From NCBI RefSeq assembly GCF_004010195.1, contig NC_057749.1:9435492-9499491 (forward strand): a DNA stretch of 64,000 nucleotides, read 5' to 3'. A model generated the notes under the pieces. That model did no database searches. It was not told where the DNA came from and worked only from the letters and a program-made list of their open reading frames with translations. The first letter of the stretch is position 1. Each line of letters begins with the position of its first letter. Source of the stretch: Chiloscyllium plagiosum. Its lineage: Eukaryota. Positions 5,222 through 63,659 of this stretch are shown piece after piece. Made by a program: the position numbers and the translations under genes.

Positions 5222-5555
5222 CCATTGGTTATACAGCCAGTCCCAGCACCCCATCCAATCCCTGTATTTTCCATGGCTAACCACCTCGCCTACACATTCT
5301 TAGACACTATGGGCAATTTAGCATGGCCAATCCACCTAACCTGCACATCCTGTGGGAGGAAACCCAAGCAGTTACAGGGAGAATGTGCAAACTCCACACA
5401 GACAGTCACCCGAGGGTAGAATTGAATCTAGAATTGAACCCGGGTCTCAAGTGCTGTTAGTGCTAACCACTGAGCCACCGTGTCATCCCTCAACAGTTTA
5501 CAACCATTGCAGGAATCTTTAAGTTCATCACTGATGTAATGTAGAAACTGAAGGT

Positions 5556-7424: not shown

Positions 7425-7899
7425 TTTTGCATGTATGATGGCAGCCACGTGCACTGCAAATTGCTTCAATTGAGAGCTCAACTGGTAATATACTGGAATA
7501 GCACATGATCAGAGGACATATCTTGACAAGCACAATTCTTTCCACATTTAATTGTCACACATAAACTAAAATAAATCTAACATATAAATCTAATGTAACA
7601 CTTTCGATTGGGTCGCTGGCTGAAATCAAGAGAAATCCTCAGTTATAATTTTAACCCATCATGTCGACCAGGTACATGAATCACTCACTGCTGTAGCATG
7701 GATCAAATAATGTAGCAATGGCCAAGAGATTGATGGTCACTTCAGTGTCTGAAACAAAATCAACATTTTTGTTGGATTGGTCAGCATCATCGAAGTTCAA
7801 GGCTAACAAATAATTCAGGTGACCTCTTCACATTTTCCATTATATCAGTGTCCTTACTTGATTTAAGTTTCATATAGGTTTTGGGGATTACTTGTGACT

Positions 7900-9050: not shown

Positions 9051-9925
9051 CCAGTTTGTTTTTTAAAAGATGATTGAATGGTTTTTATAGATCAAAAGCC
9101 AGCAAAATATTAATTTAGAAACCATTTCGGATTTAATCAACAAACCAATTCTTGAAGAAATACTAAATAATTCCTGCCTTCATGTTATGCAAAATCAGAT
9201 TGACAAACAGCTTTGTTTTATTCCTTCATGGGCATGGGCGTTGCTGACTGACTCATCCCTAGTTGCCCTTGAGAAGGTAAGCTGCCTTCTTGAACTGCTG
9301 CATGCATTTTTACCTTATGTCACCCATTATAATCCTTGATTTCACAAAAGACTTTGCATCAACAGCAAAGAATGTAGTCGATAACATTCCCCTGTAATAA
9401 TGGGAAAAGAAACTAAACAATGATGCATAGTTTTGGTTGTTATCAGTCACAACTAAATTGGATCTTTATGTGACTTTTGAAATCAAATAACAGTTTCAGC
9501 TATCAACATTTTATGTGCTTTTTACGCTTGACTATTTTGCATCTTCATCATAACGTCAAGGAAGCTGATTGGGTTTTTGTATGTGCTACAGTAAACTGGA
9601 AGTATTTCCTATTGACACTGTGTGCTTGAGCAGATCATATGCTCCAAGTGCTATATAGAGAACACAACATTCGCTGGTCCTGGGTTCTAGAATTTGTCTG
9701 TTTGATGATAACCAACTGGCAACTGCTGGTTGTCATCAGAGCTGTCTAAGTTCATGCCAAGAAGTGTATTATCTAAAGCGTTCTCATTCATGATTCATAG
9801 CTCTTAGAAACATAAGCATCTGAGCTAATGTCTGAGCTATATGATTAAGCTATGAGGTAAGTCATTATCTATAGGGCTTAAACATATACAATGTGTGAGG
9901 GAGATCTCCAGTCTATACCTCATCA

Positions 9926-10147
9926 TTAAAAATCACACAACACCAGGTTATAGTCCAACAGGTTTAATTGGAAGCACACTAGCTGTCAGAGTGCCGCTCC
10001 TTCATCTGGTGACAGTGATCACCTGATGAAGGTGTGGCACTCCGAAAGCTAGTGTGCTTCCAATTAAACCTGTTGGACTATAACCTGGTGTTATGTGATT
10101 TTTAACTTTGTACACCCCAATCAAACACCGGCATCTCCACATCATAA
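9926..10147. mobile_element. Palindromic PLE-terminus insertion (family B) with 13-bp TSD (one mismatch)
   Basis: ctatacctcatca 9913-9925 versus ctatatctcatca 10148-10160; arms ttaaaaatcac...ggtga / tcacc...gtgatttttaa. Confidence 0.85.
10019..10055 (+). ncRNA. Minimal type I hammerhead ribozyme motif (family B)
   Basis: cac CTGATGA a ggtgt-ggc-actcc GAAA GC TA gtg: helix I cac/gtg, palindromic AGCT helix III, one mismatch in helix II. Confidence 0.7.
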
Positions 10148-10834
10148 CTATATCTCATCAGTATCCTATAGGAGTTCTCAAGACCATGGATCACATCACT
10201 GTCAAAATTCCTGACATAAATATCTTGATGAGTATCCCTAAACTAGCAAGCCATAATGCTTCCAAGATATAGGTTCAAATCTCACCATGTGACATTAAAT
10301 CTGAATGTTTAGGAACTCAGGAATTCTGACTTAGGCTAAGCTCTGCTGAGAATGCATGTCCATTCTACAGCTCTGAAGCCAACGTTCTGGCATAAGATAA
10401 TATTACCTGGAAGATGTATTTGTGAGTATGGCTCACATGATCTGATGCCAGTCATAATGCATTGCAGTGGGATGAGTAGTTGCTACGTCTTTCATAATAG
10501 TCATAGTTGGGTGAGTGATGAGATACATACCAATGATACATAACAAATAAACTATGGGCTTTAATTGATGCACTCTCTTACAACTGGAGATCTCCAGTTT
10601 GTATATTATCAGCCAATATCTAAACATTCTAGATTTGGGTAAGTAGAGTGTGAACATACATGAAGAAACTGTGCTGTCCATATTTATTCAGGAGAATTCT
10701 TGTTGGCAAATGTCAATCTCAACAGGCTCCAATTGATTTCTCCTGCAAGATTTCCACAAATATGTCTTCACAAAAAACAAAACTCCAATTAATGAAAATA
10801 AACATGGACCATCATTTAGTCCAATAAGTGGAGG

Positions 10835-11020: not shown

Positions 11021-12384
11021 ATTTTTTAAAAAGGCTTGTGTTGTTGTTTTATCCTCCCAGCAGGTTTTTGTTACTATCCAATTGGTCCCACTCATATCAA
11101 CTATCTCCCCCAGTCCTAAAAACGGTTCCCTTTCAATTCATATTCTGAACTCTTTTGGAAGTGTTTCCATCCCTCTGTCATACAATTGTAAGTTATTGAG
11201 TCGAAACTTTTCAGAACATCTCATCGCCAATTCCTTTGCCAATCATTTCCATTGTTGCTGACCTCTTTGCCACTGGAAATAGTTTCTATTTGTTCTCTCT
11301 AAGAATCTCACCATAAACTCAAATCCATTAAATCTCCCCTTTGAGTTCTCTGCTCTGAAGTAAAATACAATGTTACTTTTAGGTAAAATAGAAAGATCCA
11401 CAGAATGGTTAGAGTGCATTCGGTTGATCATGTTCATGCACACTCTCTGTTCCAGCAACTCACCGAGAGGGTGATTATTAAACTTGACATGAGAGTCTTA
11501 AATTTTTTTCAACATATCACTTCAAGGGATGTGGATGTCAAACCTAAGGATCCTTGAATTAAGTGACTGGTCTGGTAAATTCTGAGGTTACTCATATTCA
11601 GACAGCAGGGTAGTAAACCAGATGGTATTTTGCCACAATCATCGATAGTTTCACACTTTTATGAACTGAAATGAAATGTTCCTGGCTGCAAAGATGGAAT
11701 TGACCTCACGTCCCAGAGCTTTTCTGAATTATTAACGATGTGAGCCATTGTGTCATCATCAATCAGAGGGACAATGCTTCGGAAATGTTCAATAAAAGTC
11801 AGTGCTCTGTACAGTTAGGCTGAAAGTACCGAATGGATCCTTTAAGGTCTGCTCAAATTAAATACCAGATGACACATGCACTTTGATGTAAAATAAATGT
11901 ATTCGCTGAATCTAATTTAGATATGTGCCAACTAATGAATGAATCTGTTAGTTTAAACCATTTAGATATATTTGACTGGCGAGTATCACTGACTTCTGCC
12001 CACGAGGGACTCCTGGGTGATGGCTCAGTGTGAGCGAAACCCCTATCAGATAGTGAAAGGCAGTGAGACACAACAGTTTCTGTATGTATAAAGTAGTTAA
12101 AGTTAACGGATTCGCCTATTAGTTTGCATATATTAAGTCGATTAAGGTAATAGATTTGCTATGTATCAAAGTGCACGTGTCTTCTTGCATTCATTTTGAT
12201 TAGACCTTAAATAACCGATTAGGTACTTTCAGATCAACAAAAAATGCATACTCCAGGACTGACACAACCTAAAATATGTTTTCAGATTAATATAATCAAA
12301 TAATTTATTTAAACAAGGCGTTTTCCTTTTGGTAGAGATATGGAATGAAATAATGATACAGCACGGAAGGAAGCTATTCAGTTT

Positions 12385-12545
12385 CACAAAAACGGAAATG
12401 GCTGGAGAAACTCAGCAGGTCTGGCAGCATCTGTGCAGAGAAAGCAGAGTCAACATTCGGAGTCGAGCGACCCTTCCTCAGAACGCAGCTAGGCTGCAGT
12501 TTCTGATTTTGTTTCAGGTTTCTAGTATCCAGAGTTGTTTAGTTT
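12385..12545 (-). mobile_element. PLE terminal fragment (family C), hammerhead decayed
   Basis: Minus strand reads gttCTGAGGAagggtcgctcgactccgaatgttgact; the GAAA box is mutated. Confidence 0.65.
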
Positions 12546-14974: not shown

Positions 14975-15490
14975 TTCTGGCAGCATCTGTGGAGAGAGAA
15001 ACAGAATTATTGTTTCAAGTCCAATATGACTTCTTCTGAAGAAGGGTCACTGGACTGGATAGGACGGACAGCAATGGTCTTGTTCCTAGGGTGGGGGAGT
15101 CCAAAACTAGAGGGCATACGTTTAAGGTGAGAGGGGAAAGACTTAGAAGGGCCCAGAGGGGCAACTTTTTCTGGATCAGGTGCAGGTATGGAACAAGCTA
15201 GCAGAGGAAGTAGTGCAACTGGGTACCATAACAGCATTTAAAAGGTATCTGGATGGATACATGAACAGGAAAGGTTTCAAGGGATGTGGGTGAAATGCTG
15301 GCAAATGGATCCAGATCAGGTGGGATGTCTGGTTCTGACAAGTAAGATGGAAGGGTCCATTTCCATGTGATATGATTCTGACTCCAAATGTTAACTCTGT
15401 TTCTATCTTCACCATCACTGCCAGACCTGCTGAGTTTCTCCAGCATTCTCTGTATTTGTTTGGGACTTCCAGCGTCTGCAATATTTTGTC
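14975..15490. mobile_element. PLE-terminus inverted element (family C) split by a CR1 3' fragment (about 15057-15380, +)
   Basis: ctgaagaagggtcactggact [CR1 tail] gactccaaatgttaactctg: the two halves rejoin into the family C hammerhead region. Confidence 0.65.
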
Positions 15491-15569: not shown

Positions 15570-15798
15570 AACCCAGAAAGAACTGTAGATGCTGTCAATC
15601 AAAAACAACAACAAAAAAACCCAAAAATTGCTGGAAAAGCTCAGCAGGTCTTGCAGCATCTGTGGAGAGAAAACAGAGTTAATGTTTCGGGTCGATTGAC
15701 CCTTCCTCAGAACTGGTCACTGAACCAGAAACGTTAACGCTGATTTCTCTCCATGTGCTGCTAGACTTTGCTGAGCTTTCGTGGCAATTTCGGTTTTT
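15570..15798. mobile_element. Palindromic PLE-terminus insertion (family C)
   Basis: Inverted arms (ttgctggaaaagctcagcagg.../...gctgagctttcgtggcaa); gttaagaaat repeated at 15550-15559 and 15799-15808. Confidence 0.75.
15677..15714 (-). ncRNA. Minimal type I hammerhead motif (family C), one CpG-decay change in helix III
   Basis: Minus strand: agtt CTGAGGA a gggtc-aatc-gaccc GAAA CA TT aact; perfect 4-bp helix I and 5-bp helix II. Confidence 0.65.
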
Positions 15799-16692: not shown

Positions 16693-16810
16693 TGCAGGCA
16701 CCCTGCCTCTATTCCTGATGAAGGGCTTTTGCCCGAAACGTCGATTTTCCTGCTCCTCGGATGCTACCTGACCTGCTGTGCTTTTCCAGCACCACTCTAA
16801 TCTAGACTCT
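16693..16810 (+). mobile_element. PLE terminal fragment (family A)
   Basis: caggcaccctgcctctattcctgatgaagggcttttgcccgaaacgtcg...ttttccagcaccac is nearly identical to the right arm at 34910-34989. Confidence 0.85.
16711..16746 (+). ncRNA. Minimal type I hammerhead ribozyme motif, intact core (family A)
   Basis: attc CTGATGA a gggc-tttt-gccc GAAA CG TC gatt, with the canonical GUC cleavage triplet. Confidence 0.78.
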
Positions 16811-16943: not shown

Positions 16944-17662
16944 GGAGGAAGTGAGGAATGCAGATGCTGGAAAAAGCACAGCTGGTCAGGCAACATCCGA
17001 GGAGCAGCAGAGTCGTAGTTTCAAGCATAAGCTCTTCATCACAAATGTGGGAGTAAGGCCAAAGAGGGCTAAGAGATAAATGGGAGGGGTCTAGGGCTGA
17101 GGGATGGTAGCTGGGAATGTGATAGGTAGATAGAAGTAGGGGTGATGGTGATAGGTCGGAGGATGGAGTGGATAGGTGGGGAGGAAGATGGACAGGTAGG
17201 ACAGTTCCAGAGGATGGTTTGGAGTTGGAGGATTGGATCTGCGATAAGGTGGGGGGAGAGAAGATGAGGAAACTGGTGAAAACAATATTGATCCCATGTG
17301 GTTGGAGGGCCCCAAGGCCAAAGATGAAATGTTTTTCCTCCAGGCATCAGGTGGCTAGAATCTGGTGGTGGAGGAGGCCCAGGACTTGCCTGTCCTTGGC
17401 AGAGTGGGAGGGGGAGTTGAAGTGTTTGGCCACTGGATGGTGGGGTTGTTTATTGTATGTCCTCCGAGACGTTCTCTGAAACATTCCATAAGTCTTCCTG
17501 ATGTACAGGAGGCCACATCAAGAGCAACTGACACAGGAGATGAGGTGTTTGGAGGTGCAGGAAAATCTCTGCCGGATGTGGAAGGATCCTTTGGGGCCTT
17601 GACAGAGGTGAGGGGGGAAGTGTGGGTGCAGGTTTTACACCTCTTATGGTGGCAGGGGAAGG
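16944..17662 (-). mobile_element. Penelope-like element 3' part with degenerate GIY-YIG endonuclease
   Basis: Minus strand encodes FPCHHKRCKTCTHTSPLTSV, HLISCVSCS*CGLLYIRKT (GIY-YIG-like), HFNSPSHSAKD.QVLGLLH and GALQPHGINI, followed by the family A terminus. Confidence 0.88.
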
Positions 17663-17979
17663 AACACAAGCAGGACTTGTGATCGTGACACAGATGCTGT
17701 CCCTCAACAACCATGCATCATAATTCTGGGAAAGGAGGAGATTCACAGAGGCTTGTGACACTGATATGCTCTGGGCTTTGCTAGCACTCAGACCATGGTT
17801 CTGTTCCTAAGACAAACTTGGAGGGGAGATCCTGAAGGTTGGCTTTTGAGACTGATTAAGGGCATCAGTTCTGTGATGGCACCTTCCAAACCACCTGGAA
17901 GCTCAGGGATATTAGAGAATTGGAAAATTCTTGTTTGAATGTTCCTCTTCAGCCACCCATCAACCTATATGGAATTATA

Positions 17980-23289: not shown

Positions 23290-23450
23290 CTGGAAACAAA
23301 AAATGCTGGAAATCACAGCGTGCCAGACAGCATCCATGGAGAGAGAGCAAGCTAACATTTCAAGTCTGGATGACTGTCCATTGTGTCCTGCTGTAATTTC
23401 CAGCGTTTTTTTTATTTCCAGTACAGATTCCAGACTGCAGTAATTTGCTC
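23290..23450. mobile_element. Degenerate PLE-terminus inverted fragment
   Basis: aaaaaatgctggaaatcacagc / gctgtaatttccagcgtttttt inverted arms; related to family C. Confidence 0.55.
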
Positions 23451-31609: not shown

Positions 31610-31895
31610 GATTGATACAGTGTGGAAGCAGGCCATTCAGTCCATTGAGTCCACACTGACCTTCTCAGCATCCCACCCAGACCTGTCCCCATACCCTATC
31701 CTTGTAACCCAGCATTTGTCATGGCCAATCCACTTAATTTGTACATCTTTGGACTGTGGGAGAAAGCCAGACCACCTGGGGGAAACCCATGCAGACATGG
31801 GGATAATGTGCAAACTCCACACAGACAGTCACCCGAGGCTGTAATCGAGACTGGGTCCCTGGCGCTGTGAGGTAACAGTGTCAACCACTGAGCCG
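31610..31895 (-). mobile_element. HE1-like SINE
   Basis: Reverse-complement HE1 features. Confidence 0.85.
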
Positions 31896-32094
31896 TCCAA
31901 CATTATTATGGCTTCAACAAAGCCTTAAAAAAAATGTTACAAAGCTCATCTCTGAGGAGGTAGTGGTTTAGTGGTAATAGCACAGAACGAATAATCCAGA
32001 ATCCCAGCCAAATATTCTGGGGCTGTGGGCCATTCTACTGCATGTTTTATGTATATATCCACTTTCTAATCAACCTGTTCAGGGATGTTATTAC

Positions 32095-32305
32095 ATTTTT
32101 TTAAATTTGAAAAAATATACTTTATTCATAAAAATTATCTTTGCAGGTGGGGCTAGATTGGGTTGGGATATCTGGTCGGCATGGACAGGTTGGACCGAAG
32201 GGTCTGTTTCCATGCTGTACATCTCTATGACTCTACAGAGGCATAGACACAGTTCTGTTCTGTACAAATAGCATATCCAGGAAACAAACAAACATTGCAG
32301 TTTGA
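32095..32305 (-). mobile_element. Probable L1/Tx1-type poly(A) 3' end containing a CR1 tail insert (32143-32235, +)
   Basis: The minus strand ends aataaagtatatttttt..aaaaaaa; the inner segment matches the CR1 3' end. Confidence 0.45.
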
Positions 32306-32310
32306 CTCAT

Positions 32311-32610
32311 GGGCGGCACAGTGGCACAGTGGTTAGCACTGCTGCCTCACAGCACCAGAGACCCGGTTCAATTCCCGCCTCAGGCGACTGACTGTGTGGA
32401 GTTTGCACGTTCTCCCCGTGTCTGCGTGGGTTTCCTCCCACAGTCCAAAGATGTGCAGGTCAGGTGAATTGGCCATGCTAAATTTCCCGTAGTGTTAGGT
32501 AAAAGGGGTACATGTAGGGGTATGGGTGGGTTGCGCTTCGGCGGGGCGGTGTGGACTTGTTGGGCCGAAGGGCCTGTTTCCACACTGTAAGTAATCTAAT
32601 CTAATCTAAA
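32311..32610 (+). mobile_element. HE1 V-SINE, young
   Basis: A/B boxes, V-domain, CpGs retained, (aatct)3 tail. Confidence 0.92.
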
Positions 32611-33960: not shown

Positions 33961-34765
33961 AAGAATTGATTAGGTTAGTTTTGAGATTGTGGCTGGGTAT
34001 TGCCATGTTGAAATGATAAAGTCTGGAATTTGGAAGGAATTGAATGATGGATTCTCAGTTTTGAAATGTTGGCAAAGAATTAAACTAGGCAGGAGATTCT
34101 TCAATAAATCACAGTAAGGATACAAAACAGAAGGATATGAACAATAAGGCAGTTGGAGTTTAGGAATATTCTGAGGTGTGGTTGTCGTATGGATAAAATA
34201 TAGAGCAAAAATAGTTGATGATGGATTTAGATTTTATTGTCACATGTACTCAAGTACAGGGATACAGGAATACAATTAAGTGTACAATATCGCCATTTGT
34301 GGCACCATCTTAGGTACAAAGGTACCTAGGTACAAAATCTTAGGTAGAAAAATGAAGAAATAAGTTAGAAAATTCAACACTAGAGTTCGAGGATGGTTAT
34401 TAAAAGGTTTCTTTACGTTTCTTAATATATTGACTGTAAAAGAATATGAAGACTTATAGTTATTTGGCACCATTTACCATCTCAGGACATCCCAAAGTGC
34501 TCTATAGTCAATTAGATACTTTATTAAGGTATAGTCACTGTTGTAATGCAGCTATTAAAGTAACTATTATTGAGACCAGCTATTTATTCCACACTCATTT
34601 TACTGATAGAATCTTTATTCCCAGGCTGCTTTGGTAGATTTGAACTCATTTGGCTGAATCATCCTCTCTCTTTCTCATCTTAATTCACACCCTTTTCACA
34701 TTTTGTTACCTTTTTCCACTATTAAAAACCCCTTGGCTTTGGCACTAGGCCTCTACACCATCTGG

Positions 34766-34991
34766 GTAAAAACAATGACTGCAATTGCTGGAAATCAGTG
34801 TGGTGCTGGAAAAGCACAGCAATTCAGGCAGCATCCGAGGTGCAGGAGAATCGACGTTTCGGCAAAAGCCCTTTATCAGGAATACAGGCAGAGTGCCTGA
34901 AGGGTGCCTTTCAGGCACTCTGCCTGTATTCCTGATGAAGAGCTTTTGCCCGAAACGTTGATTTTCCTGCACCTCGGATGCTGCCTGAACT
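34766..34991. mobile_element. Palindromic PLE-terminus insertion (family A) with 16-bp TSD
   Basis: cctctacaccatctgg at 34750-34765 and 34992-35007; arms about 34823-34901 and 34910-34989. Confidence 0.9.
34928..34963 (+). ncRNA. Minimal type I hammerhead motif (family A)
   Basis: attc CTGATGA a gagc-tttt-gccc GAAA CG TT gatt; one helix II mismatch. Confidence 0.62.
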
Positions 34992-36394
34992 CCTCTACAC
35001 CATCTGGCCAATTGTTCCTCCTTTGCCTTTGTCAAAAGTATAAAAAGGAACCTATTTTGCAACACCTGACAGTTCTGAAATAAGTCACACCAAACCTCTA
35101 ATGTTAATTCTGTTTCACTCTCACAGATGCAGCCAGAGTTTCTCCAGCACTGTGTTTATTTCAGATTTCCAGCATCCTTTATTGTTTTTATTGCCTGAAT
35201 CATTATTAACATTGCCTCTGTGTTATTCATCCAGCAATGTTGCTACTGTGCTACTTTACCACAGCCTTCCCTGCTCCTGGGATCAAATTCTTCCAAGATA
35301 TTCCCAAGGACTGTAAAATTCCCTTTCAAGTGTCCTCAGACTTTCTACATCTCCTCCACCGAGCGGATGCCTTTGGGAGAACCCATATCATTGCCACCAC
35401 TCCCAGGGACATGACACAACTCTAACAATGCCCATAGATGTGAGCACAGCTTGTTTCTGCTGCTGTTACATTATCGCAGAGACTTTAATTTTGTAAGCTG
35501 ATCATCGTGCAGAAAAATGTTGCTTTTGACAGAATATCTCCAGCCTACTGTTTCATACACAGATGAGTTTTCCAGTGTAATACAATTTAAAAATATTAAT
35601 CTAAAAATAGAAAAGATCTAAAATACATTTTTCCAACTACCTTGACATTGTGGCAACAAGAGCTGATGGAGCAATGGAGTATTTATAGCATAATCTTACG
35701 CACATAGTTTAAATGCTATTGTATACAGGAGCCAGAGGAAGTCTTATCCCAATGTCCTGCTTAATTAATAAGATATCCTTGGCCATAGCTTTAATGCAAT
35801 TATTCAAAGGATGGTTTGAAGAGATAAGCAAAGCTATGGATATTGATGTCTTGGAGAAGAAATAGCTTTCCTTAACAATGCAGCAACAAGGACTTGCTGT
35901 GGAGGCTGTAAGAATTGTGCATGAGGATATTTAGCTTTCTTTGCTGACATAGTAAAGTAATTAGTTAGTACATTAACTTGCTCCAAGGTCAATAATAATA
36001 ATAATGAAAGAACTGGACTCTTCCACACTGGACTGTTTTGAAGTCTGCATTGCACAGGCTTTGACCTTTCTAACCTAAGATGATAAATTGAGATCCTGTA
36101 AATGTCACAGAATCCTGTTCCATGTTAATGGGACCAATCTAGCCGCTTTCAAAGTGGAATTGATCCCAACTGGAGGCTCCCACCACCCATTTTGTGTGGC
36201 TGCTCTCTGTCCTTGACACATCGCTGTGGATAACCAATGAAAATCAGCACTTGCTCAATTGCTCCTAGCCTTTCCTAATATCCCACCTCCTAACAGACAT
36301 TTGAAGGCATAAATGCTGAATGAAATTGACTGTTGAAGCCAACCCTGAACTCCCAATTCACAAAGACCTTCAGAGCTTATTAAATATGCAACAG

Positions 36395-36640
36395 AAACAC
36401 AGAAGGTGGTACGTGTATGGAATGAGCTGCCAGAGGAAGTGGTGGAGGCTGGTACAATTGCAACATTTAAGAGGCATTTGGGTGGGTATTTGAATAGGAA
36501 GGATTTGAAGGAATATGGGTTGGGTGCTTGCAGGTGGGACTCGATTGGGTTGCGATATCTGGCCGGCATGGATGGGTTGACGGGGGACGGGTTGGACCGA
36601 AGGGTCTGTTTCCATGCTGTACAACTCTATGACTCTATGA
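36395..36640 (+). mobile_element. CR1 3' tail, followed by a family C PLE terminus (about 36645-36770)
   Basis: VVRVWNELPEEVVEAGTI.TFKRHL and 3' UTR, then agaagggtca...gaaactttaac. Confidence 0.85.
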
Positions 36641-38334
36641 GCTCAGAAGAAGGGTCATTCCTGCCCCGAAACTTTAACCATGATTTTTCTCTCTCCACAT
36701 ATGCCGTCAGACCTGCTGAGTTTCTCCAGATTTCTGTTTGGATTTCAGATTTCCAGCATCTGCAGTTCTTTTCTTTCCATACTCTCCCTTCAAGGGCACC
36801 ACATATCCTTCGTCAGTGGCATTTGAAGGAAAGTCTTGTATGTGACTCTGGTCAGACAGATCAGTTGTGTTCACTACATTGTGAACAAATGTGGCGGATG
36901 GAAGTTTGCCACAGGATTCAAGGCAATCCAGTGAGCAGCAGACAGTGCTGTGGTGTGGCTGCCCAATAAGTGCAGATATTATAAAGCTGTGAGATATCAT
37001 GTTGATAGAAGAGACAAGGTCTTCCAGTTAGGGTAGTGAAAACTGACCCTGTTGCATTCTTTCTCTCTCCACTGTTAAAACAGATGCAAAGCATTCATTT
37101 AAGATGTCATCTATTTCCTTGTTATCCTTTATAGTTTACATTGCAGTCAAGCTTGTATTAATCTTTAACATTGTTCTACTCCCTTTTACATTCTCAATGT
37201 ACTTATAAAAAACCTTTATTGTTAGGTTTGATATTCTTTGCAAGTATTTTCTCCTATCCTTGTAACCTTTTATAGCTTTTTTTTATTTCTTCCCCAGTCC
37301 TTTCAGATTTCCACATTCCCTTTTGTAAACCTTTTCTGTCAGCTTGCCTTATTTGCCAACCAGGTTTGTTTAACTACACAAGTGTGGCTTTTACAACTTG
37401 GGGATAAACCCTGGTGTTATATTGTAACCAAATGTTTCTATAAACACTTCCCAGTTGTTGCACTCATTAATGGTTGAGCCCCAGTTTCCTGCAGCTTTGT
37501 CACGTTGATTTTTAAAGCCTGCCTTACTTAAAATATTGGACTATGATTCTTCTTTTTCTCATACCTAATATTAAATTTAATGTCTTTATGATCACCATTC
37601 ACAAGGCATTCTAATACCATTCAATTTGTCAAAAATGCTTTATTAATGCACTTTCTATGACCACCAACTTTTCCAATGGGACTTGCACCAAGACCTTCTA
37701 GTGGCCCTAATTATTACACCCCAAGATGTTTATTGGAAAGTGTGAATTAGCAGTTCACTTTACATATTGTCTGCTTTGTTTCTTCATTGAAGAGAAATCC
37801 AGACATCGACTTCAATGTGTAAAACAAGCTATCACTCAAAGACCAATCTCACCCACTTTGTTTAGGAAAACTGACCTGAATACATTGCAAATAAATCTGT
37901 TTTACGACTTGAACTGTTCCAGTCAAATGAAAATTAAAACCACTCATTCTAACCACAATATTTTTGCAAGAGGTTTTCTTAATGTAACTATTTGTATATC
38001 ACACCATGCTGCTATATTGTTACTACCAGAAGGAGGTTTACAGACAACTCCTGGCAAGGAGTCTTGCATCCTTTGCTTTGCCCTAACTCAACCCACAGCA
38101 TTTCCACTGCCTGATCCACCTTCCTGGCACACTTTTTCTGTGCTTTTCATCAATATCACTGTTGGGTTTTCTTATTCAATTTCACCCTCTCTTTTGAGCT
38201 AATCACAACAACATTAGAACTATCATCAAAGGTTTTCTGGGATAAAGAGCAGTAGGAGAGGGACAAGGGTTTAGGATGCAGCCGCAATCTTGGTGAATGG
38301 CAGGCAAACAGGTTGAAAGGCCTCCTTTTGTTGC

Positions 38335-38440
38335 TGAAACAAAAGCAGCAATTGCTGGAGAAACACAACAGGTCTGACAGCATCTGAGGAGAGGGAAACA
38401 CAGTTAACGTTTCAAGTCCAGTGATTCTCCTTCAGAACTG
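38335..38440 (-). mobile_element. PLE terminus (family C), hammerhead partly decayed
   Basis: Minus strand: cagtt CTGAAGG agaatcactggactt GAAACGTT aactg. Confidence 0.65.
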
Positions 38441-38667
38441 TTCTCCTTTTGTTCCTGTGGCCCTGACTGTGGGAATCCTTTCCCCCAGCAATTATCGAAG
38501 GCTGGGTCTCTGAACTGAGTTGGATAGATCTTATATTGAGAAAGGCTTCTTGGGCGGGGCACAATGGAGTTTGGGCTAAATCAAACCAGCTGTGATCTTA
38601 GTGACTAATAGCACAGTCTCAGCGTTGTAGAAGTTTTCAGCACAGAAAAAGTCCTTTTGCCCCTTCG

Positions 38668-38965
38668 CGGCAGCACAGTGGCTCAGTGGTTAGCACTGCT
38701 CCCTTACAGGGTTCCAGGTTCGATTCCAGCCTTTGGCAGCTGTCTGTGTGGAGTTTGCACATTCTCCCCGTGTCTGTGTGGGTTTCCTCCAGATGCTCTG
38801 TTTCCTCCCAAAATCCAAAGATGTGCAGGTCAGGTGGACTGGCCAAAATAAATTGCCCGTAGTGTTCAGGGATTTACAAGTTGGGTGGATTGCAGGGTGG
38901 GATGCTCTTTGGAGAGGGGTCAGTGTGGACTCGATGGTCCGAATGGTCTATTTCCACACTGTAGA
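38668..38965 (+). mobile_element. HE1-like SINE
   Basis: Head ggcagcacagtggctcagtggttagcac, V-domain, tail. Confidence 0.85.
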
Positions 38966-39149
38966 GCCTAACTACTCTCATCCCATTGATGGGCCGAATG
39001 CTTTTCTCCTGCTCCTATGTTCAATATTTCTGCAATTGTTCGGCTGAGTATTTTTAACGCGCATTCTGAATTTCTTTTTGGATATTATGCATTCAAAAAC
39101 AGAACTTCCCCTTCCCTTTTTAGTGCCTATTTCCTCCGTGCACGTTTAA

Positions 39150-39820
39150 AAAATTGATGCAACATTACATGACATAGCGAACTGTAAAACCCTTTCTCTG
39201 ATTTCCACAACCCCCTCCCCCAATCGGCTTCAGGCGAGGGGTCCTATGTTCAGCTTGCAGATGTAAACGGGGCTTCCCTGTTTTTTTTTGTAAATTCTGC
39301 TCGCTCTTAATAAAAATACTCCCAGAGGAGTTGCTGCCTGGAATGTTTCCATTTGTTCGACACACACCCAAATGTTGGAAAAAGGACAGACTATGTGTGC
39401 ACACACACACACACACAGAAAGATAGATTTGAGTGGATGATGGCTGGGGCTGTGACCAGCCGGATTGTGCGACACACACAAAGGTTTGAAGAAAAAATGA
39501 GTTCGTGTGTAACGAGAGCCACAATTGGAGCAATTGTCCAGCCTGAACAATTGGCTATCGTGCAACTGAGACAAAAAATGGCCTTGCGTGCGAACGCGAT
39601 TGAGAGGACGTGAGATGCCAAGAATCGTATGGCAGGTAATGCAACTTGAACTATTCGCTCAGTCACGCAACAGTCCCAAGCAAACTGCACCGGAACACGC
39701 CTGCTTCTGTACACCCTTCCCTTGCCAAAGACATCAATCTCGAGAGGGCAATCACGTTCCCTCTTTTGTTTTATTCCAACTGCTGAAGCAAACAGCTTCG
39801 ATTTAACCTCGCCATCATTT
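39150..39820 (+). promoter_or_regulatory. CpG-retaining candidate alternative promoter or first exon ending ATG GCA G|gtaatg (donor at 39636)
   Basis: Non-repetitive and CpG-rich; CCAAT near 39220; GCGTG cores at 39586, 39664 and 39696; donor CAG|gtaatg. Confidence 0.4.
39400..39417. repeat. (CA)9 microsatellite
   Basis: Read directly from the sequence. Confidence 0.9.
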
Positions 39821-40213
39821 AATAGCCACTAATACATTAATTTTCTAATAATCTCCCCCCAGTCCCCCCAGTTTGGGGGATGAATCCACCACCTCTTGTC
39901 TGCAAGGGTCTGGAATGTACTGAGTCATGAGGATGGGTCACTGGTTACCCCCCACCCCAAAGGTTAACTCTGATTTCTCTCCACAGATGCTGCCAGACCT
40001 GCTGAGCTTTTCCAGCGATTTCTGTTTTTGTTTCTGAAATGTACTGCCCTTGAGTGTGCCATATTCAACCTCTGCACGCCTATACATACATACACACTGC
40101 AGAAAATATAATGTACACGGTTAGGGGGAGAAGACTGGGGAAGGATGTTATTATCGATGTTATTATCCAGGGAAGAGTTACAGAGTCATACAGCAAGGAA
40201 ACAAATCCTTCAG

Positions 40214-40438
40214 GAGAAAGTGAGGACTGCAGATGCTGGAAATCAGAGCTGAAAATGTGTTGCTGGAAAAGCGCAGCGGGTCAGGCAGCATCCAAGGAAC
40301 AGGAGAATTGACATTTTGGGCATAAGCCCTTCTTCAGGAACGATTCCTGAAGAAGGGTTTATGCCCGAAACGTCGATTCTCCTATTCCTTGGATGCTGCC
40401 TGACCTGCTGCGCTTTTCCAGCAACACATTTTCAGCTC
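40214..40438. mobile_element. Palindromic PLE-terminus insertion (family A) with 15-bp TSD inside a CR1 tail
   Basis: aaacaaatccttcag at 40199-40213 and 40439-40453; 95-bp arms 40246-40340 and 40344-40438 with a 3-nt spacer. Confidence 0.92.
40342..40380 (+). ncRNA. Minimal type I hammerhead motif, intact core (family A)
   Basis: gattc CTGAAGA a gggt-ttat-gccc GAAA CG TC gattc. Confidence 0.75.
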
Positions 40439-40502
40439 AAACAAATCCTTCAGTCCAACTCCTCCATGCTGAACAAGTTCCCCAAACTAAATTAGTCCTA
40501 TT

Positions 40503-40730
40503 TAGAGTCATAGAGATGTACACCAGAGAAACAGACCCTTCGGTCCAACTCGTCTGTGCCGACCAGATATCCCTAATCTCGTCCCATTTGCCAGCATTTG
40601 GCCCCATATCCCTCTAAACCCATCCTACTCATGTGCCCATTCAGATGCCTTTTAAACATTGTAATTGTACCAGCCTTCACTACTTCGTCAGGCAGCTTGT
40701 TCCATACACGTACCACCCTCTGCATGAAAC
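40503..40730 (-). mobile_element. CR1 3' tail
   Basis: Reverse complement of the CR1 3' end (agagtcatagagatgtaca...). Confidence 0.85.
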
Positions 40731-48530: not shown

Positions 48531-49107
48531 AAGGGCAGGGGTGTGGTACTGGTTGGATTGCTCTTCCAGCAAGGCACAGCAGACACCTTAGGCCAAATGG
48601 TCTCCTTCAGCTGTCCAATGTCAGCTGTCTCTCGATTTGAGGTTGATGTCCGCTCGGAATCATGGGTTTCTTTGTGTGACTGAGCAAGCCAATCCTGTAC
48701 TCACAGAAGATAGTATGTGAAGCGCTGGATTTAAAAAAACAAATTCACTTCCTCTAAATATTCTGTGATTCCAGTGAATGCTTCCTGCATGTCAAAGGTG
48801 GTGGTTCCATTGATTGATGGTCTCGGATTAATGTTTAATCAAAAGGGAAACTCCAACGGTATTTTCAGAAACTCTTATCTGATTCCAGGCATCAGCCATA
48901 TTTCCCTAATGATGAAAAGGAGAAATGGTAAAAATAATGAAAAAATCCAGGGGAAGATGGAAAAACAATTTCTTGCTGGTGGATGCCAACAACTATTATG
49001 TAATTGATGTTCATGGGGGAGGGGCAAGGGTAGAAAATGTTTAAGGATTTGGTGGTGTAGCAGTGATATCACTGAACTAATAATACGAGGCTGAAGCTAA
49101 TACTGTG

Positions 49108-49790
49108 TTGTGGAGGTGCCAGTGTTAGACTAGGGTGGGCAAAGTCAGAAGTCACATGACACCAGGTTATAGTCCAACAGGTTTATTTGAAGTCACAAGC
49201 TTTTGGAGCGCTGCTCCTTCATCAGATGAAGTGGAGGGAAGCGCACAAGTGCAGAATATTTATGAAGGGATTATGGTCAGATAATTCCAGATCATTAAGA
49301 GATTTGAGAGATAAGTAGAAATGGTGTGAGTGGAGAGTCGACAGGCTGAATAACCAGTCTTTGCAGGTGATCAAAAGTGTCAGACAGTGTGAGTAAAGTG
49401 TCAACAGTTGAATAACAAGTGAACCATCATCTATGAATTGATTAATTAAGACAGAAGATAACTACAAAAGGTCAAAAATAAGATGGCACGAGAGACAAAC
49501 CAAATGGCTGGAATAACATGATAGGTGTCAATGTCCCATGATGAGGGTCTAACCCAAGTAATCCAAACTAATTAAGGTAGAGAGATGATAACAAGTTATC
49601 AAGGTGATGGTGTGACAACAGAATAGTAAGGAAGATTTTCCAAACACAAAACAGTATGATGGGGTTACATGTAGCGTGGCATGAACCCAACATCATGGTT
49701 GAGGCCATCCTCATGGGTATGGAACTTGGCAATCAGTTTCTGTTTGGCGATTCTGCATTGTATGTCTCGAAAGCTGTCTTGCTGTGAGAG
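49108..49790 (-). mobile_element. Penelope-like element 3' end (family B): GIY-YIG C-terminus, 3' UTR and terminus
   Basis: Minus strand RIAKQKLIAKFHTHEDGLNHDVGFMPRYM* (stop at 49665-49667); the terminus has CTGATGAaggagcagcgctccAAAAgctt (hammerhead with G12A). Confidence 0.85.
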
Positions 49791-51109
49791 GCATGGGCCA
49801 CCACAACAGCTGATAAAATGTGAGTTCAGCTAATCAAATATAAAGGTAATCTCAGCAATGGTGATCATGAAACTATCATTGATTATTGTAAAAAACCATC
49901 AGATTTACTCATGCTCTTTAGGGAAGAAAGCCTACTGCCCTAGCCTACATCTGACTCCATTCCCACAGCAATGTAGTTGACTCTTCAAATCGCACTGAAT
50001 TGGCCTTGCAAACCACTCACTGTCAGAGACACCTGTATCTCTGAGCAACAATGGTAGAAGCCTTATAACCAAGGAGACCATGGGAGAATAAACAGATGGA
50101 GTTGATTCTGGAAATAATGAATAAAGCTAACTCTCAATTCAAACTGAAGATCTAAACTTCTCACAGAGAAGAAAGCTTTCTTCCCATCACCATCCAGGTC
50201 AAATCCTAACTCTTAAACCTTAACCCTGTTCATATCTCGTCTTCTGAACTAAAATGACACATTGAAGCCATTGGAAAGTTTCCTACCAATTGCTCCACAT
50301 TCCTAAAGCTTGATTCAAATCATTGTCACATTGGTGAGACCACAAAAGTCCTTCACTTCGGGTCATCCTAAGCATGTAAGTGGTGCTATGTAAATGCCGG
50401 TCTTTACCTCTCTAGCCCAGTACGTCGATAACGTCTCCTTTGTCCCCTGAGATGGGGAATCAGGTGGAGACAGTGATCCATGTACATTGTAGCTGTGTGT
50501 AGCCACAATTTGTTGACATCCCTTCGCAATATATCCTTAATGGGTCATAAGCATCCATAATCCTGGAGAAGCTAGTTAAATACAAGCTAATATATCTGCT
50601 ATGAGTATTGTAACATAATCCCTGATATGTCTGCAGGTTATACTTCAGCATGAAAGGCTTCAATGGAACAGCTATTTATCTCTGTTCAGCTGGAGATGCT
50701 GCCTCTAGGATTGAAACATACAATGGATAGTTGTTAGTGAGTTATGAATCAAAAAAGATTTTTAAGTAAATTATCGATAAACTGTTGATTACTCTTATCA
50801 TCCTAGAGTGTTATTCAGGTGGGGGTCATAATAATATGGTAGTAATGTCCCTATCTCTGAGCTAAGAAGCCTGGGTTCAAGTCCTACTTGCTTCAGAGCT
50901 GTGCAATAACTTCTCTAAACAGGTTGATTATAAATATCTAAAAGGCCAATACGGAAAGAACTCTTGTGGTGGTGTGGTAGTGTCCGTACCTTGGAGCCAG
51001 AAGGCCTGGATTCAAGTCTCACCTAAGGCTGTAAATACGAGCAGATTTAGGCGATTCAGCCCATTGAGTTTGCTCCACCATTCGGTCATGGCTGATAGAG
51101 GTGTGTAAC

Positions 51110-51375
51110 AAAAGCAAAAATAGCTGAAGAAACTCAGCCGGTCTGGCAGCACCCGTGTGGACAAAGCAGAGTTAGCGTTGCCATATCAGTAACCCTTCTT
51201 CAGAACTGATAGCAGCCAGGAAACATTTGTATGTATGCGGAAGTGGGGGAGGTGAAGTGGGGAAAAGAGTGAGCAGATAGGTGGACATGAAGCCCAGAGA
51301 GAGAGAACAGTGCGACAAACAAGGGATGACTGATAGTAAACCAGGAACAGAGAAATGCTGATAATGGGGACCTTT
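51110..51375 (-). mobile_element. PLE 3' UTR and terminus (family C)
   Basis: Minus strand cagttCTGAAGAagggttac...aacgctaactctg preceded by a pyrimidine-rich UTR. Confidence 0.6.
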
Positions 51376-52274
51376 AGGTAGGTGTGTAATCTCATTTCTG
51401 AACAGATTGACTGGAAAATATCTAAAATGCTAATACAAATGTTTGAGTCACTTAATCTCATCTGTTGCTGCCATAATGTTATCGGTAGGACGTCCCCATT
51501 AATCAGCTGTGCACTTGTTCAATTTCAGGAGTAATGCATTCTTGCTGGGATTATGCTGTCCCCCTGGGCTCAGACTGGTTGGTCAGACAGCAGTTTGACA
51601 GCAGGCAAGACTTATGCCATTTTTAAACTTAACAAAAAAGCCAAACCAATGCTGGAAATACATGGCAGAGCCAATCAGCATTTACAAAGAGAAAGGAGAG
51701 GTGGTCGGATGATGGAAATGGAACCTATAGCAGGTCTGATATCAGATGGCCATGTGCTCAGTGGCTTGTGTACTTGCAGCATTAGCAGGATTTTCTTTTT
51801 GAGTCTTTCACTCTGACATAATTTCCTGGGCTGCTCAGTCATGTTTGATCTCTCCACCCTCTCGTTCGATCCCTAAATTTCACAGCCCTGGCAGGAAGCT
51901 TCAGGAGCAGTGAGTTCTTTGGTTTTCCTTCATTTTGGCTGGACTTCCAAAACTCAGACTTACCAGTAAAACCTGCTGTGCACCATGGTAACAGGGGTAG
52001 GCTGTTAGGCCCCTGAGTCAGTTCTGAAATGTAGCAACAAGATGTAGGCCATTCATCTCCTCAAGTCTGCTGAAGAAGATAAGAACAGGAGTAAGCCATT
52101 TAGTCCCTGGAGGAGTCTATAATGGAGCTCAGTAACTGGAGTAGGCCATTCAGCGTCTCAAGGTGCTCTGCCATTCAAATAGATCTCAGCTGTCAATGCC
52201 ATTTGCTCACCTTTGCTCCATATCATGTGCTGCTCCTGTCTAACATGGATACTGTACCAGCAGAGACTGTGTAG

Positions 52275-55440: not shown

Positions 55441-56199
55441 CCTGTCGAGAGTGTGGTTCTGGAAACGCACAGCAGGTCAGGCAGGATCCAAGGAGCACGA
55501 GAGTCAGTGTTTCAGGCAAAAGGTCAAGAACGAGGGACTTCATAGGAATAGCTAAAGAAGCAATGGTAACATGAAAAATAATTTTTATATCGAATCTGAT
55601 ACCAATCAGGATTCAATCATGACTTTAAAAAGGAAATTGGATAAAGGGAATTGGATAACCAGTTGAAGAAGGAGAATCTGTGGGACTGCAAGGAAAGTCT
55701 GAGGATTGAACACAACTGATGCAGAGAGCTTGCATTGACAAGATGGACTGAATGGTCTCCTTTTATACTGTAACATTCTATTATTAATGATTCACTCTTA
55801 CCCACTTCGAGAAACCCTCCCTTTTCTCCACCACCTGGTCAAATTTATTTTTGTTCAGTCCCTTTTAGTAACATTTGCATTTTGACAGCAATTGTTATGT
55901 TAATGAAACCCTCATAGATGCACACATGGCTGGTTGTGGCTGTGGGCAGGTAGAGCTGAGATGTTACATGAATGATGAAGTAGGTTGAGGTGAGACTGCT
56001 GAATGTTATATAAATCCTGAATTAGTTTAAACCCAATCTGAAAAAAGTTGGTCTGAACAGTGTCAGATGTCACATGACACAGGTTATAGTCCAGCAAGTT
56101 TATTAGAAATCAGAAGCTTTTGAACCACTGCTTCCTCATCACCTGAATAGTGTGACACTTGAAGTTAAAGCTTGGATTAATTTATAACTATGATGTTGT

Positions 56200-60030: not shown

Positions 60031-60622
60031 CACCTTCAGATCCCTGAAGACTCCCATGTACTTTGAGATGTTTATTTTTAATTTTCCCCCGAACCAACCT
60101 GCTTAGACATTACACATCTCTGGAGCAGGTGGGACTTAAACCTGGGATTTCCAGTCGGGAGGACTTCTTTCAGTTATTAAGTTCATGAGATGCAGGTGTC
60201 ACTGACAATTTCAGCACTTACTGCCTATCCCTCACTGAGAAGGCAGTACTGAGCAGATCTGTGGCCCTGTAACCCTCTTGCTTGAATCAAACAAAATCTG
60301 TGTTCAAGTCCCACATTTGAGCCCAAAAATCAAACAGACAATCTAGTGCAGTATTGAGGATGTGTGCACTACCTATTGGAGGAGGTGTTCGAGCAAGATC
60401 TCAACTATGTGCTTGGTGCGTGTACAGGATCACCATTTGAAGATGAGCCGGGGGGAGTTATGCCTGGAGTTCTGGCCAGTGCTTACCTTTTAATTGCCAT
60501 CTCTAAAAGCAAATGGCGTGGCTGTCTTGTGGTGCAGTGGTACTACCCCTATCCCTTGACCAAGGTTCAAGTTCTACCTTCCCCAGAAGTGTGCAACAAC
60601 ATCTCTGAACAGGTTGATTAGT

Positions 60623-60745
60623 GAAACAGAAAAGAACCATAGATGCTGGAAGAAGGGTCACTGAACATGAAACGTTAACTCTGATTTCTCTCCACAGATG
60701 CTGCCAGACCTGCTGTGTTTTTCCAGCAATTTCTGTTTTTGTTCA
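60623..60745 (+). mobile_element. PLE-terminus mini-insertion (family C) with 8-bp TSD
   Basis: tgattagt at 60615-60622 and 60746-60753; gaagaagggtcactgaacatGAAACGTTaact. Confidence 0.65.
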
Positions 60746-60767
60746 TGATTAGTTAACTAGTCTGTTT

Positions 60768-61414
60768 TGTGACAATACTAAGCCTTTAAAAGGTGTATTT
60801 GTTCCTTTTTTTTTTGAAGAGAGGTTTTCAGTAAGCGATACCGAGCTGTCTATTACAAGCCCATAAAGTAAACCGCTTGAGAGACCTTGGCTTTTTAAAA
60901 AATGTTGGAACAATAGAAGCAGACTGAATGGGTGGGGCAAACTCCTCCCGAACCAGGGTTTTTAGTTTTTCATTTTTCAGGAGCAAATGCTCGGTTTTTA
61001 AACTTGTTTTGGAAGCTGCAGTACATCTCTTTCTGGTATTGTCTCCAAGTTTTGATGTTTTTTCCTCTTGGACTGGAGAAATACCTGTGAGACAATCTAT
61101 TTTACTGAACTTGCCTTTTTCCCAGGGTGTGTTGTTGGGATGTTACTGTATTAGAACAGTTAATTAGTAGTCATGAATATATCTAATTATTTTGTTAAGA
61201 ATTTTGATAGAGTTACAGTTAAGCTAGTTCTTTTTATTTTATCTGTTTTTAACGGCAGTGTAAAAATGAAGTGTGTTTTGCTGAAGTTTGAGTAGGTTGA
61301 CCAATCGAATACATTTGGAACACAACACCTTACACTTACCTTTAAATAAGAAAAGGTTAGGGTCTCGACTATCTCCTAAATATATTTTTAGGGGGTTTGG
61401 TCGGAGACTTAACA
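60768..61414 (+). mobile_element. Solo LTR (Gypsy/ERV-like)
   Basis: Begins TGTGAC, ends TAACA; flanks gttt/attt (3 of 4 match); no internal ORF. Confidence 0.55.
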
Positions 61415-61418
61415 ATTT

Positions 61419-61629
61419 CAGAAGTCAGACAACACCAGGTTATAATCCAACAGGTTTATTTGAAATCACAAGCTTTCATAGCGCTGCTCCTTTGTTAGGT
61501 GAAGTCTGATGAAGGGGCAATGCTCCGAAAGCTTGTGATTTCAAATAAACTTGTTGAACTATAATCAGGCTTCATCTGACTTCTGACCTTGTCCACCCTG
61601 GTCAAATACCGGCACCTCCACATCATGCA
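61419..61629. mobile_element. Palindromic PLE-terminus insertion (family B) with 9-bp TSD
   Basis: taacaattt at 61410-61418 and 61630-61638; arms cagaagtcaga...aagctttc / gaaagctt...tctgacttctg; + strand core CTGATGA a ggggc-aat-gctcc GAAA GCTT at 61506-61534. Confidence 0.85.
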
Positions 61630-62869
61630 TAACAATTTGTTTTGTTGACTTCCAAAGAGTACAAAGGGGGATGGGTTTGCTCTGAGCAGAGCTGACTTAT
61701 TTTCTGCTATTAACCCCGACTATTAACACTAACTCTACATCTGTATCTCTCTGTTACACCCACAAGCACACCATTTGCCTCTTACACTAGGCATACTTAC
61801 CATCTGCTCTATTTTCTCCTTCTTCCCATTTACAATAAGAAACAGCACTTTCCAGCCCTCTTCAATTCCAAAGATGAGTCCTCCCAGACAAGAAATGTTA
61901 ACTCTTTGCACAGACATTGCCAGAAGTGCTGAGCTATTCCAGCACTGTTTTTAAAAGAAGACATTTATATGGGCTGTCAAAAAAATACAAACAGGGTCTA
62001 GTGGGAGACAATGGTATGTTTAATGGCTGAGTTTACAAAATGTAAAAAGGGTTTTCTGAGACAGTAGGTTCTTGGTAGGTATGAGGCAGATACATGTTAC
62101 ATTGCATTCTGGGAATAAACCTATCAAGAGAAGGATCTCAGTCTACTTTCATACTTTACTGTCTGGCTCAGATCCATTAAACAAGTTTGACACTGGAGCA
62201 GAACCTTTCTCTTTAAGTTGCACCAGGCATTCTTCAGCATCTGCCTGAACCCGTCAACACAACTTGGGTCCAGTGGCTTATCATTAATCTCTAAGTCCCA
62301 CATTCGCATGCCCAGTTTAGTCTCTGAGTTTAATTCTGTCACATTGAGAGTCAGAGGGCAACTTGAGTTATAGCTGAGTACCACTGACTATATATAGAAA
62401 TCAGTGCCTGTTGGTTTTTTTTGTGCGCGTTGATTACAGATTTAAAAAAAGCCATCTTTAGCCATGCATTTAAAGGAAGTTTCAATGATGATTTGGGCTT
62501 TGCATGTGCTTGTTGTGCTTATCAGTTTAAATTCCTGTAGCAACTGATGGAGGATAACAGTACAGTTGACACGCCAAGAGATTGTCTCTCTGGGACTGTA
62601 GACACCCTCCATTTACCAGCACTTTTCTTCAATGCCCTACTGAAGATGTAGCGTTATCCCAACGGGATTCCGTAGCAGGAGTGCCCTATGTGCATTTCTC
62701 CTCAGGCAATCTAACCCTTGATATATATTTAGCTTGAAATGAATATGATGAAGAATTTGTGTGTGTTCCTTCACTGCCGGCCACAAAGACAAACACCATT
62801 GACAATAAGTCAAAATGCACTAAAAGTTGGGGTACCAACTCTTCCTGATCCTATGCGCAAGCTGTGTTT

Positions 62870-63190: not shown

Positions 63191-63496
63191 AGAAATTCTA
63201 CATTTTCAAGTTGTAAACACGGCTTTCAGTCAGGTGACAAACAACCTAAACCAATCTATTTATGGCATGCCAGATTAAATCAACGATGTTGACCCGGTTA
63301 GTGTAAGGCAGTCAGTAAAATTCCATGTTCTGTCATAATGTTTGAGAATGCTGATCTTAGAATATTAATGAGACAATGGACCTAGGTCATAAAAGAACAA
63401 GTCAGACCAGATCCTTTTGCCTTTCCAGTGAGCATGTGAGAAAACATGTGTACAAGGATTGAGTAAGAAAGTATAATGGTACAAACATTAAATGAG

Positions 63497-63590
63497 CTTA
63501 AAAATGTGTTGCTGGAAAAGCGCAGCAGGTCAGGCAGCATCAAAGGAGCAGGAGAATCAACATTTCGGGCATAAGCCCTTCTTCAGGAAT
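63497..63590 (-). mobile_element. PLE-terminus mini-insertion (family A) with 11-bp TSD and hammerhead motif
   Basis: cattaaatgag at 63486-63496 and 63591-63601; minus strand attc CTGAAGA a gggc-ttat-gccc GAAA TG TT gattct. Confidence 0.85.
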
Positions 63591-63659
63591 CATTAAATGA
63601 GAACAGGTTTGATTTGGATTCCTTCCTTGGTCACATAGTGTAGCCACCTAGCGAAGAAT

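Follow-up and report, generated by a model that had tools for sequence, protein, structure and literature searches.

Two short palindromic insertions

The window analyzed here, a 64,000-nucleotide stretch of Chiloscyllium plagiosum DNA (contig NC_057749.1, positions 9,435,492 to 9,499,491 of the forward strand), contains short insertions built from a terminal unit that carries a predicted hammerhead ribozyme and that can be traced to Penelope-like elements (PLEs). Two of them, A1 (34766-34991) and A2 (40214-40438), consist of this unit duplicated head to head, with a tail on one side and no open reading frame (ORF). A1 is flanked by exact 16-bp direct repeats starting at 34750 and 34992, and A2 by exact 15-bp repeats starting at 40199 and 40439. 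A first-pass annotation of the window had described both as ORF-less, hammerhead-bearing palindromes within exact target-site duplications (TSDs) of these lengths, a description that our analysis bears out. The insertions are real and of a known kind, the shortest form of the PLE insertion pattern, most likely rebuilt at each landing.

In A1, the left TSD (34750-34765, plus strand, an exact match to 34992-35007) is followed by a tail-bearing arm on the minus strand (34766-34906), which holds the tail end and the terminal unit with its hammerhead core and extends to about 27 nt upstream of the core. The tail-less arm (34907-34991, plus strand) starts about 25 nt upstream of its core (34932-34959) and is followed by the right TSD (34992-35007, plus strand). 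The arms are identical at 78 of 84 positions (34821-34904 against 34907-34991) and are separated by 2 nt. The unpaired tail had been given as about 30-55 nt. This is correct for A2, with 32 unpaired nt on a single side, but the 55 unpaired nt of A1 are made of an ordinary tail plus some 30 nt missing from the end of its tail-less arm, which stops that far short of other family-A copies.

A2 has a left TSD (40199-40213, plus strand) whose final two letters are also compatible with the element terminus; loose read ends fall at 40212-40214 in all four sequencing runs considered below. A2 lies in the 3' tail of a long interspersed element (LINE), which we take to be HER1-like, and the right TSD (40439-40453, plus strand) is a 15-mer that is single in five paralogous tails in the window. 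Between the duplications lie the unpaired tail (40214-40245, minus strand), the tail-bearing arm with the centre (40246-40342, minus strand), and the tail-less arm (40343-40438, plus strand), which starts 4 nt upstream of the core (40347-40374). The 95-nt arms agree at 89 of 95 positions across a gap of 3 nt. Each of the two insertions has six arm mismatches, every one a transition. The tail, as defined in PMC11167929, would lie between the two sites at which reverse transcription starts. On the minus strand, the unit contains a 26-codon frame (40323-40245) that opens with an ATG in hammerhead loop II and closes with a stop where the tail begins. The segment 39230-39830, some 400 nt from A2, is richer in CpG, contains CCAAT-like boxes and has, by eye, the look of a promoter region.

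Identity of the terminal unit

Five hammerhead cores of the minimal type I (as defined in PMC4209133) are intact by motif scan, and a search of the window against Rfam at gathering thresholds returned 0 matches. Minimum-energy folds of A2 and of the 5120 copy contain stems II and I, with a stability not above that of shuffled sequences. The hammerheads of the terminal unit are treated as predicted, and their cleavage as putative.

Copies were sorted into families A, B, and C, with A1 and A2 among the subfamilies of family A. In a long family-A copy (16945-17720, minus strand) the terminal unit is joined to broken remains of C-terminal GIY-YIG coding sequence at 17269-17663. A 107-residue piece of this copy, read through stops, had 646 protein matches at E<=0.001 (HMMER). 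Nine of the 150 matches listed, picked by length or rank, were scanned for domains; all nine carried GIY-YIG and five also RVT_1, several of these domain matches falling below the curated Pfam cut-off. In tblastn, proteins of 752-891 aa, with GIY-YIG and in most cases RVT_1 matches, aligned by their C-termini to 17269-17663. Because the terminal unit is contiguous with remains that match proteins combining reverse transcriptase (RT) and GIY-YIG, family A is identified, by sequence, as a PLE end. The RT portion of the element is absent from the window. Scanned directly, the GIY-YIG piece of the window gave 0 Pfam families (3 pieces), nothing meaningful in PDB (best E 0.83), and no homologue in a word index, and scans of viral, metagenome, and genome contig collections gave 0 matches. 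No protein matches were obtained for families B and C, and a 41-aa piece of the family-B copy at 49106-49800 had neither a Pfam nor a tblastn match. These two families are placed with PLEs provisionally, by common architecture and hammerhead only.

Copies with two arms, a stub, or a single arm

Thirteen TSD-bounded copies of the three families were found in the window, six with two long arms, two in which the tail arm is reduced to a stub of 11-26 nt (5110-5221 and 60626-60745), and five that consist of the tail-less arm only. The first-pass annotation had listed symmetric cases only. These exist, but the same families also produce the TSD-bounded stub and single-arm forms. The two-arm architecture claimed for four further copies stands, together with an exact 15-bp TSD for 7099-7424, but the duplications of the other three are weaker: 13 bp with one mismatch for 9926-10147, 9 bp for 61419-61629, and 10 bp for 15570-15798, where the left copy of the repeat lies 10 nt outside the start given earlier. 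With their TSDs, these copies are B1 (7084-7439, minus strand), whose arms reach about 42 and 78 nt upstream of the core and each contain a TATA-like hexamer; B2 (9913-10160, plus strand), with its centre close to the core; B3 (61410-61638, plus strand), with the tail-less arm ending at -7 (positions are relative to the first base of the core); and C1 (15550-15808, minus strand). All two-arm copies are head to head, and none of the listed copies is tandem.

Of the stub copies, the one in the A2 subfamily (5095-5236, plus strand, 15-bp TSD) has the same tail-less arm and both outer ends as in A2, its tail arm being a stub of merely 11-14 nt, and the family-C copy (60615-60756, plus strand, 11-bp TSD with one mismatch) joins a tail-arm stub of 22-26 nt to a tail-less arm. 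Tail-less arms standing alone include an A2-subfamily copy (63486-63601, minus strand, 11-bp TSD), a family-B copy (56053-56153, minus strand, 11-bp TSD with one mismatch), and two family-C copies, one at 38322-38453 (minus strand, 11-bp TSD) and one at 39909-40046 that starts at -4 (plus strand, 14-bp TSD with one mismatch). Longer forms are a family-C single arm (51099-51389, minus strand, 10-bp TSD), with an initiator-like motif at -4 and a TATA-like one at -32/-28, and a family-B copy (49106-49800, minus strand, far end approximate), with an initiator-like motif at -7 and a TATA-like one at -39. An A1-subfamily single arm (16695-16801, plus strand) starts 20 nt upstream of the core, with no TSD found. 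It stands tail to tail with the copy from 16945 onwards, at a distance of 143 nt, the two belonging to different subfamilies of family A.

Within the window, no pair of copies of the same subfamily has a common palindrome centre. The centre of the 40214 copy differs from those of 5110 and 63497, and that of 7099 from that of 9926; B1 and B2, which belong to one subfamily, have centres 40-70 nt apart.

Several other arrangements were noted. A family-C two-arm copy (14976-15487) has its tail-bearing arm interrupted by a LINE 3' fragment (about 15060-15375), and its tail-less arm ends at +62, as that of A1 does. Two more family-C copies (12376-12540 and 23294-23446) combine a long tail-less arm with a short tail arm, their TSDs decayed or absent. 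The inverted 71-nt arms lying 519 nt apart at 31778-32438 are two opposed copies of a short interspersed element (SINE), presumably HE1, and are unrelated to the PLE hairpins.

The TSDs range from 9 to 16 bp across copies. Among 2000 random 225-nt pseudo-elements used as a chance control, flanking repeats of at least 9 bp occurred in 4 and of at least 10 bp in 1; this single case, a 16-bp repeat, probably came from a random position that happened to hit a genuine element. The A2 duplication postdates its target, because the paralogous LINE tails, five in the window, each hold the 15-mer once. A2 was the sole success among nine sites tried for a paralogous empty site, the other eight yielding none.

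Arm ends at the hammerhead

The inner ends of the arms are concentrated at the 5' edge of the hammerhead. Of 25 arms, 18 end within -11 to +11 of the first base of the core, against an expectation of 10-24% derived from the rate of stops farther upstream (P of 5e-7 or less); the remaining 7 of 25 run on into the element body. The 25 comprise arms that reach the core and whose inner end is set by a TSD or by the partner arm, together with two long copies with approximate ends, and they leave out 4 stub arms short of the core and 9 copies lacking a TSD or clear partner.

Motifs at this point were judged against the usual initiator and TATA consensus sequences and spacing. An initiator-like 7-mer occurs at the pile-up, with its A at -7 in the 49106 copy, at -4 in the 51107 copy, and, by the consensus of loose-end reads, also at -4 in the A2 subfamily. 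The longer copies have a TATA-like hexamer 28-32 nt upstream of the initiator-like point. Three A2-subfamily copies and the family-C 39923 copy start at -4, and the tail-less arm of B3 at -7; B1 has no initiator match.

Other origins of the pile-up were considered and rejected. Templates cut by the hammerhead do not fit, as the arms retain the core. A splice acceptor at this point, where the intron of the fly element ends, is contradicted by the lack of an AG in family A and by two family-C copies that keep the AG. A cap-templated G preceding the arm (seen in A2 and 5110, ambiguous in 63497) was not counted, since by a rough estimate its share of about 9-10% of starting arm depth in reads is within chance.

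Public sequencing reads at A2

Four of 24 listed public runs (X1, X13, X15, and X21) were compared with 40030-40520 at 88% likeness. The matched material amounted to 75,204, 104,440, and 16,253 contigs, the first two figures from DNA runs, plus 2,513 raw RNA reads. In all four runs loose ends pile up at 40212-40214 and at 40428/40432, with flanks of low agreement: the outer ends are fixed and the inner ends variable. The 15 best of 601 joints include 13 distinct skips, each with a depth of at most 470 against arm depths above 1 million. Depth at the centre base (40341), relative to the summed arms (40333 plus 40351), was 4.9% in X1, 2.4% in X13, 0.4% in X15, and 26 of 598 reads in X21, where 18 of the 26 show another letter at that base; such shares should not be read as copy numbers. 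At the hammerhead cut site (40375), neither joints nor loose ends were seen among the rows listed, and no contig spans the A2 locus in full. As to an orthologous empty site of A2, X13 reads partly cover the left flank, with no skip joint among the rows listed, and X1 has no depth there.

A joint from element end to element start (40432>40212) occurs at low depth in 14, 9, and 3 contigs of three runs and in 0 raw RNA reads; like the tail-to-tail pair at 16695 and 16945, it probably reflects neighbouring insertions and possibly a target preference. The joint 40255>40429, reported as joining opposite strands, was set aside as an alignment artefact, as it connects mirror positions of the palindrome. 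At 40324, 40243, and 40249, some letters are far more frequent in raw RNA than in DNA contigs labelled with the same species; at 40324, for example, A>G is found in 59 of 201 RNA reads against 1.3% of DNA depth. Such differences may reflect either subfamily bias or editing.

Proposed integration by two-strand priming

We propose, with a probability of roughly 0.75, that the insertions are one-off, shortest-form products of ordinary integration by endonuclease-bearing PLEs. The PLE protein would nick both target strands 9-16 bp apart, the distance suggested by the TSDs. Each nick would then prime complementary DNA (cDNA) synthesis on PLE RNA, one at an inner start site and the other at a site about 30 nt further 3'; the outer ends, about 30 nt apart, do sit on opposite sides of the insertion. 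The two cDNAs would grow toward each other and be joined with overlaps of 0-3 nt, giving the order TSD, tail with arm, mirror arm, and TSD; the second arm could be full length, reduced to a stub, or missing. In vitro, the protein of a lizard PLE nicks both strands and extends them from two adjacent internal starts that have the tail between them; this protein is predicted to form a dimer and does not depend on hammerhead cleavage (PMC11167929). The suggestion of the first-pass annotation that these are extremely truncated PLE integration products finds support in the PLE-end identity and in the continuum of arm lengths.

A more tentative extension, which we rate somewhat below even, is that short copies are run-off products reaching a capped 5' end, so that the pile-up maps the transcription start of each family (-4 in A and C, -7 in B). 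The point at which most arms stop, at the hammerhead's 5' edge, would be the 5' end of the RNA. The odds are about even that this end is reached by priming within the terminal repeat's 5' copy, at the start sites there. The transcription start of fruit-fly Penelope lies within the upstream repeat (PMC2377424).

A number of observations weigh against these readings. Arm ends were assigned manually, and both the pile-up zone and the motif patterns were chosen after the data had been seen. The initiator-like 7-mer is expected by chance in 14% of 12-nt stretches, and the arms of A1 end at -25/-27, off the initiator-like point, which run-off leaves unexplained. The fruit-fly Penelope promoter is TATA-less, with its start 46 nt before the intron (PMC2377424), and initiation precisely at the hammerhead has not been established for other PLEs. 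The arms of A2 are no nearer to each other (89/95) than to a sister copy (88-90/95), which is compatible with copying from one template or from two. Near-symmetric centres recur in the reads at high depth, at 40338 (4 letters out), 40340 (3), and 40342 (1), the 40338 centre reaching a depth of 68,846 in 6 X1 contigs and 21,588 in 7 X13 contigs. A small palindromic lineage could exist, because the 40338 class makes up 5% of local depth in X1 and 0.8% in X13, being about sixfold commoner in X1. Note that short-read contigs under-recover hairpins, and that joints in X1 and X13 were partly uncounted.

The SINE-like alternative keeps hairpin formation at insertion and changes the template: an RNA of about 130 nt, starting just before the hammerhead, would be transcribed alone and mobilized in trans, and tail-bearing short copies could be secondary sources if the promoter is internal. 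Most arms span this same unit, copy number is large judging by the contigs of the two DNA runs, and non-autonomous PLE derivatives are on record. Furthermore, terminal repeats suffice in cis for mobilization in trans in a rotifer (PMC3846280), and the Penelope promoter is internal (PMC2377424). Long templates are nevertheless in use, as indicated by the arms that enter the body and by 247 X21 reads in which the loose letters ahead of 40343 have a consensus similar to the element body. In X21, 97% of matched reads continue into unlike sequence, and no unit-length or circular RNA and no sharp start or end was seen in this sample, about 2% of one fragmented single-cell polyA library that shows small RNA poorly. 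We consider this alternative unlikely.

A second alternative, to which we give similarly little weight, retains the one-off origin and replaces the two separately priming nicks with a single cDNA that folds back and primes itself by template switch. Such self-priming has been proposed for the palindromic junctions of rotifer PLEs (PMC3846280). Near-symmetric centres in A1 (-27/-25) and A2 would be expected from it, and it fits A1 best: the A1 arms share variants that are missing from the sister copy at 16695, and those of B2 share a 2-nt insertion. It does not, however, readily produce the 11-14-nt stub of the far tail end (5110) or the one-sided tail, the A1 centre lies beyond the small hairpin able to self-prime, and nicking and extension of both strands in vitro (PMC11167929) points to separate priming.

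The first-pass annotation had also raised a self-propagating, retrozyme- or MITE-like class (miniature inverted-repeat transposable elements) in which the palindrome is copied as a unit, with shared centres as its signature. We find this very improbable. Near-symmetric centre classes do recur at high depth, unevenly, in two species. The four classes, however, together make up 1.8% of arm depth in X1 and 0.4% in X13 and match the expectation for two arms ending at one point with overlaps of 0-2 nt, and no read junction is dominant. Same-subfamily copies in the window never share a centre, the second arm varies from absent to full, the TSDs vary, and neither tandem units, terminal inverted repeats, nor circular-junction reads were seen, the 40432>40212 joint being absent from the raw RNA reads sampled. 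The centre-sharing check itself gave a divided answer: centres differ within window subfamilies, but minor classes recur in reads. It is confounded by the tendency of arms to end at a single fixed position, which lets a few centres recur without common descent; shared palindrome centres are no proof of descent from one master.

Finally, long palindromes are unstable and no contig spans the whole A2 locus, as would suit remnants of long inverted insertions with a later central deletion, or assembly collapse, but single-arm TSD-bounded copies stop at the same point without any palindrome, and the 6-7% divergence between arms is not what collapse of a single sequence would produce. This origin is hardly credible.

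The insertions are therefore best read not as a new class of mini-retroelement but as evidence on PLE integration. With their fixed outer ends and differing inner ends, tens of thousands of short copies offer an in vivo test of two-strand priming. If the run-off interpretation is true, the genome would hold a very large fossil record of such priming, the RNA start site would be readable from DNA alone, and a SINE-like offshoot might arise from tail-bearing copies in which the start site is retained. For annotators, there is a risk of mistaking PLE hairpins for MITEs or retrozymes.

Comparison with known systems

MITEs are short, non-coding, hairpin-forming, and TSD-flanked, like the insertions described here, which differ in having no terminal inverted repeats, a variable size and TSD, and a retroelement origin. 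Membership is contradicted by the unpaired tail at one terminus and by TSDs of 9-16 bp rather than of a fixed short length.

The animal retrozymes without long terminal repeats (Cervera and de la Pena 2020, PMC7229834; bioRxiv 10.64898/2026.07.22.740005) are also short and non-coding, with type I hammerheads, TSDs of more than 4 bp, and a relationship to PLE terminal repeats. They are, however, head-to-tail tandem units cut by the ribozyme into circles, whereas the insertions here are head to head, have a minimal core, and begin upstream of it. The lack of tandem units and unit boundaries that lie off the ribozyme cut site exclude them from that group.

A closer likeness is found in PAc, the Poseidon element of Anolis carolinensis (Frangieh et al. 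2024, PMC11167929). In both, the outer ends are about 30 nt apart and enclose the tail, a start codon lies in stem or loop II of the hammerhead, and copies starting at the hammerhead cut site are lacking. The sequences differ, and the frame that opens at this codon stops at the tail here, whereas in PAc the ORF begins at stem II and extends further. The available portion of that article describes neither hairpin insertions lacking an ORF nor a 5' pile-up. A search by title and abstract start found no published ORF-less PLE hairpins or 5' pile-up; a prior description could exist in Repbase, Dfam, subscription papers, or the supplementary figures of PMC11167929, which lay outside its scope.

The insertions of endonuclease-bearing PLEs offer the closest match. 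PLEs typically have an adjoining inverted, 5'-truncated copy and a one-sided tail of 30-40 bp (Craig et al. 2021, PMC8557442; Arkhipova et al. 2013, PMC3846280; PMC8969392). Differences from this pattern are the absence of an ORF between or behind the arms, TSDs of 9-16 bp compared with 8-10 bp in the rotifer, a very high copy number, and the pile-up at the 5' edge of the hammerhead. The coding arrangement, a terminal unit on an ORF with RT and C-terminal GIY-YIG, was recovered for family A only. The shared features are a terminal unit joined head to head to an inverted, 5'-truncated copy of itself at a palindromic junction, a one-sided tail of 30-40 nt, a minimal type I hammerhead, a TSD on the insertion, and, in the longer copies, GIY-YIG.

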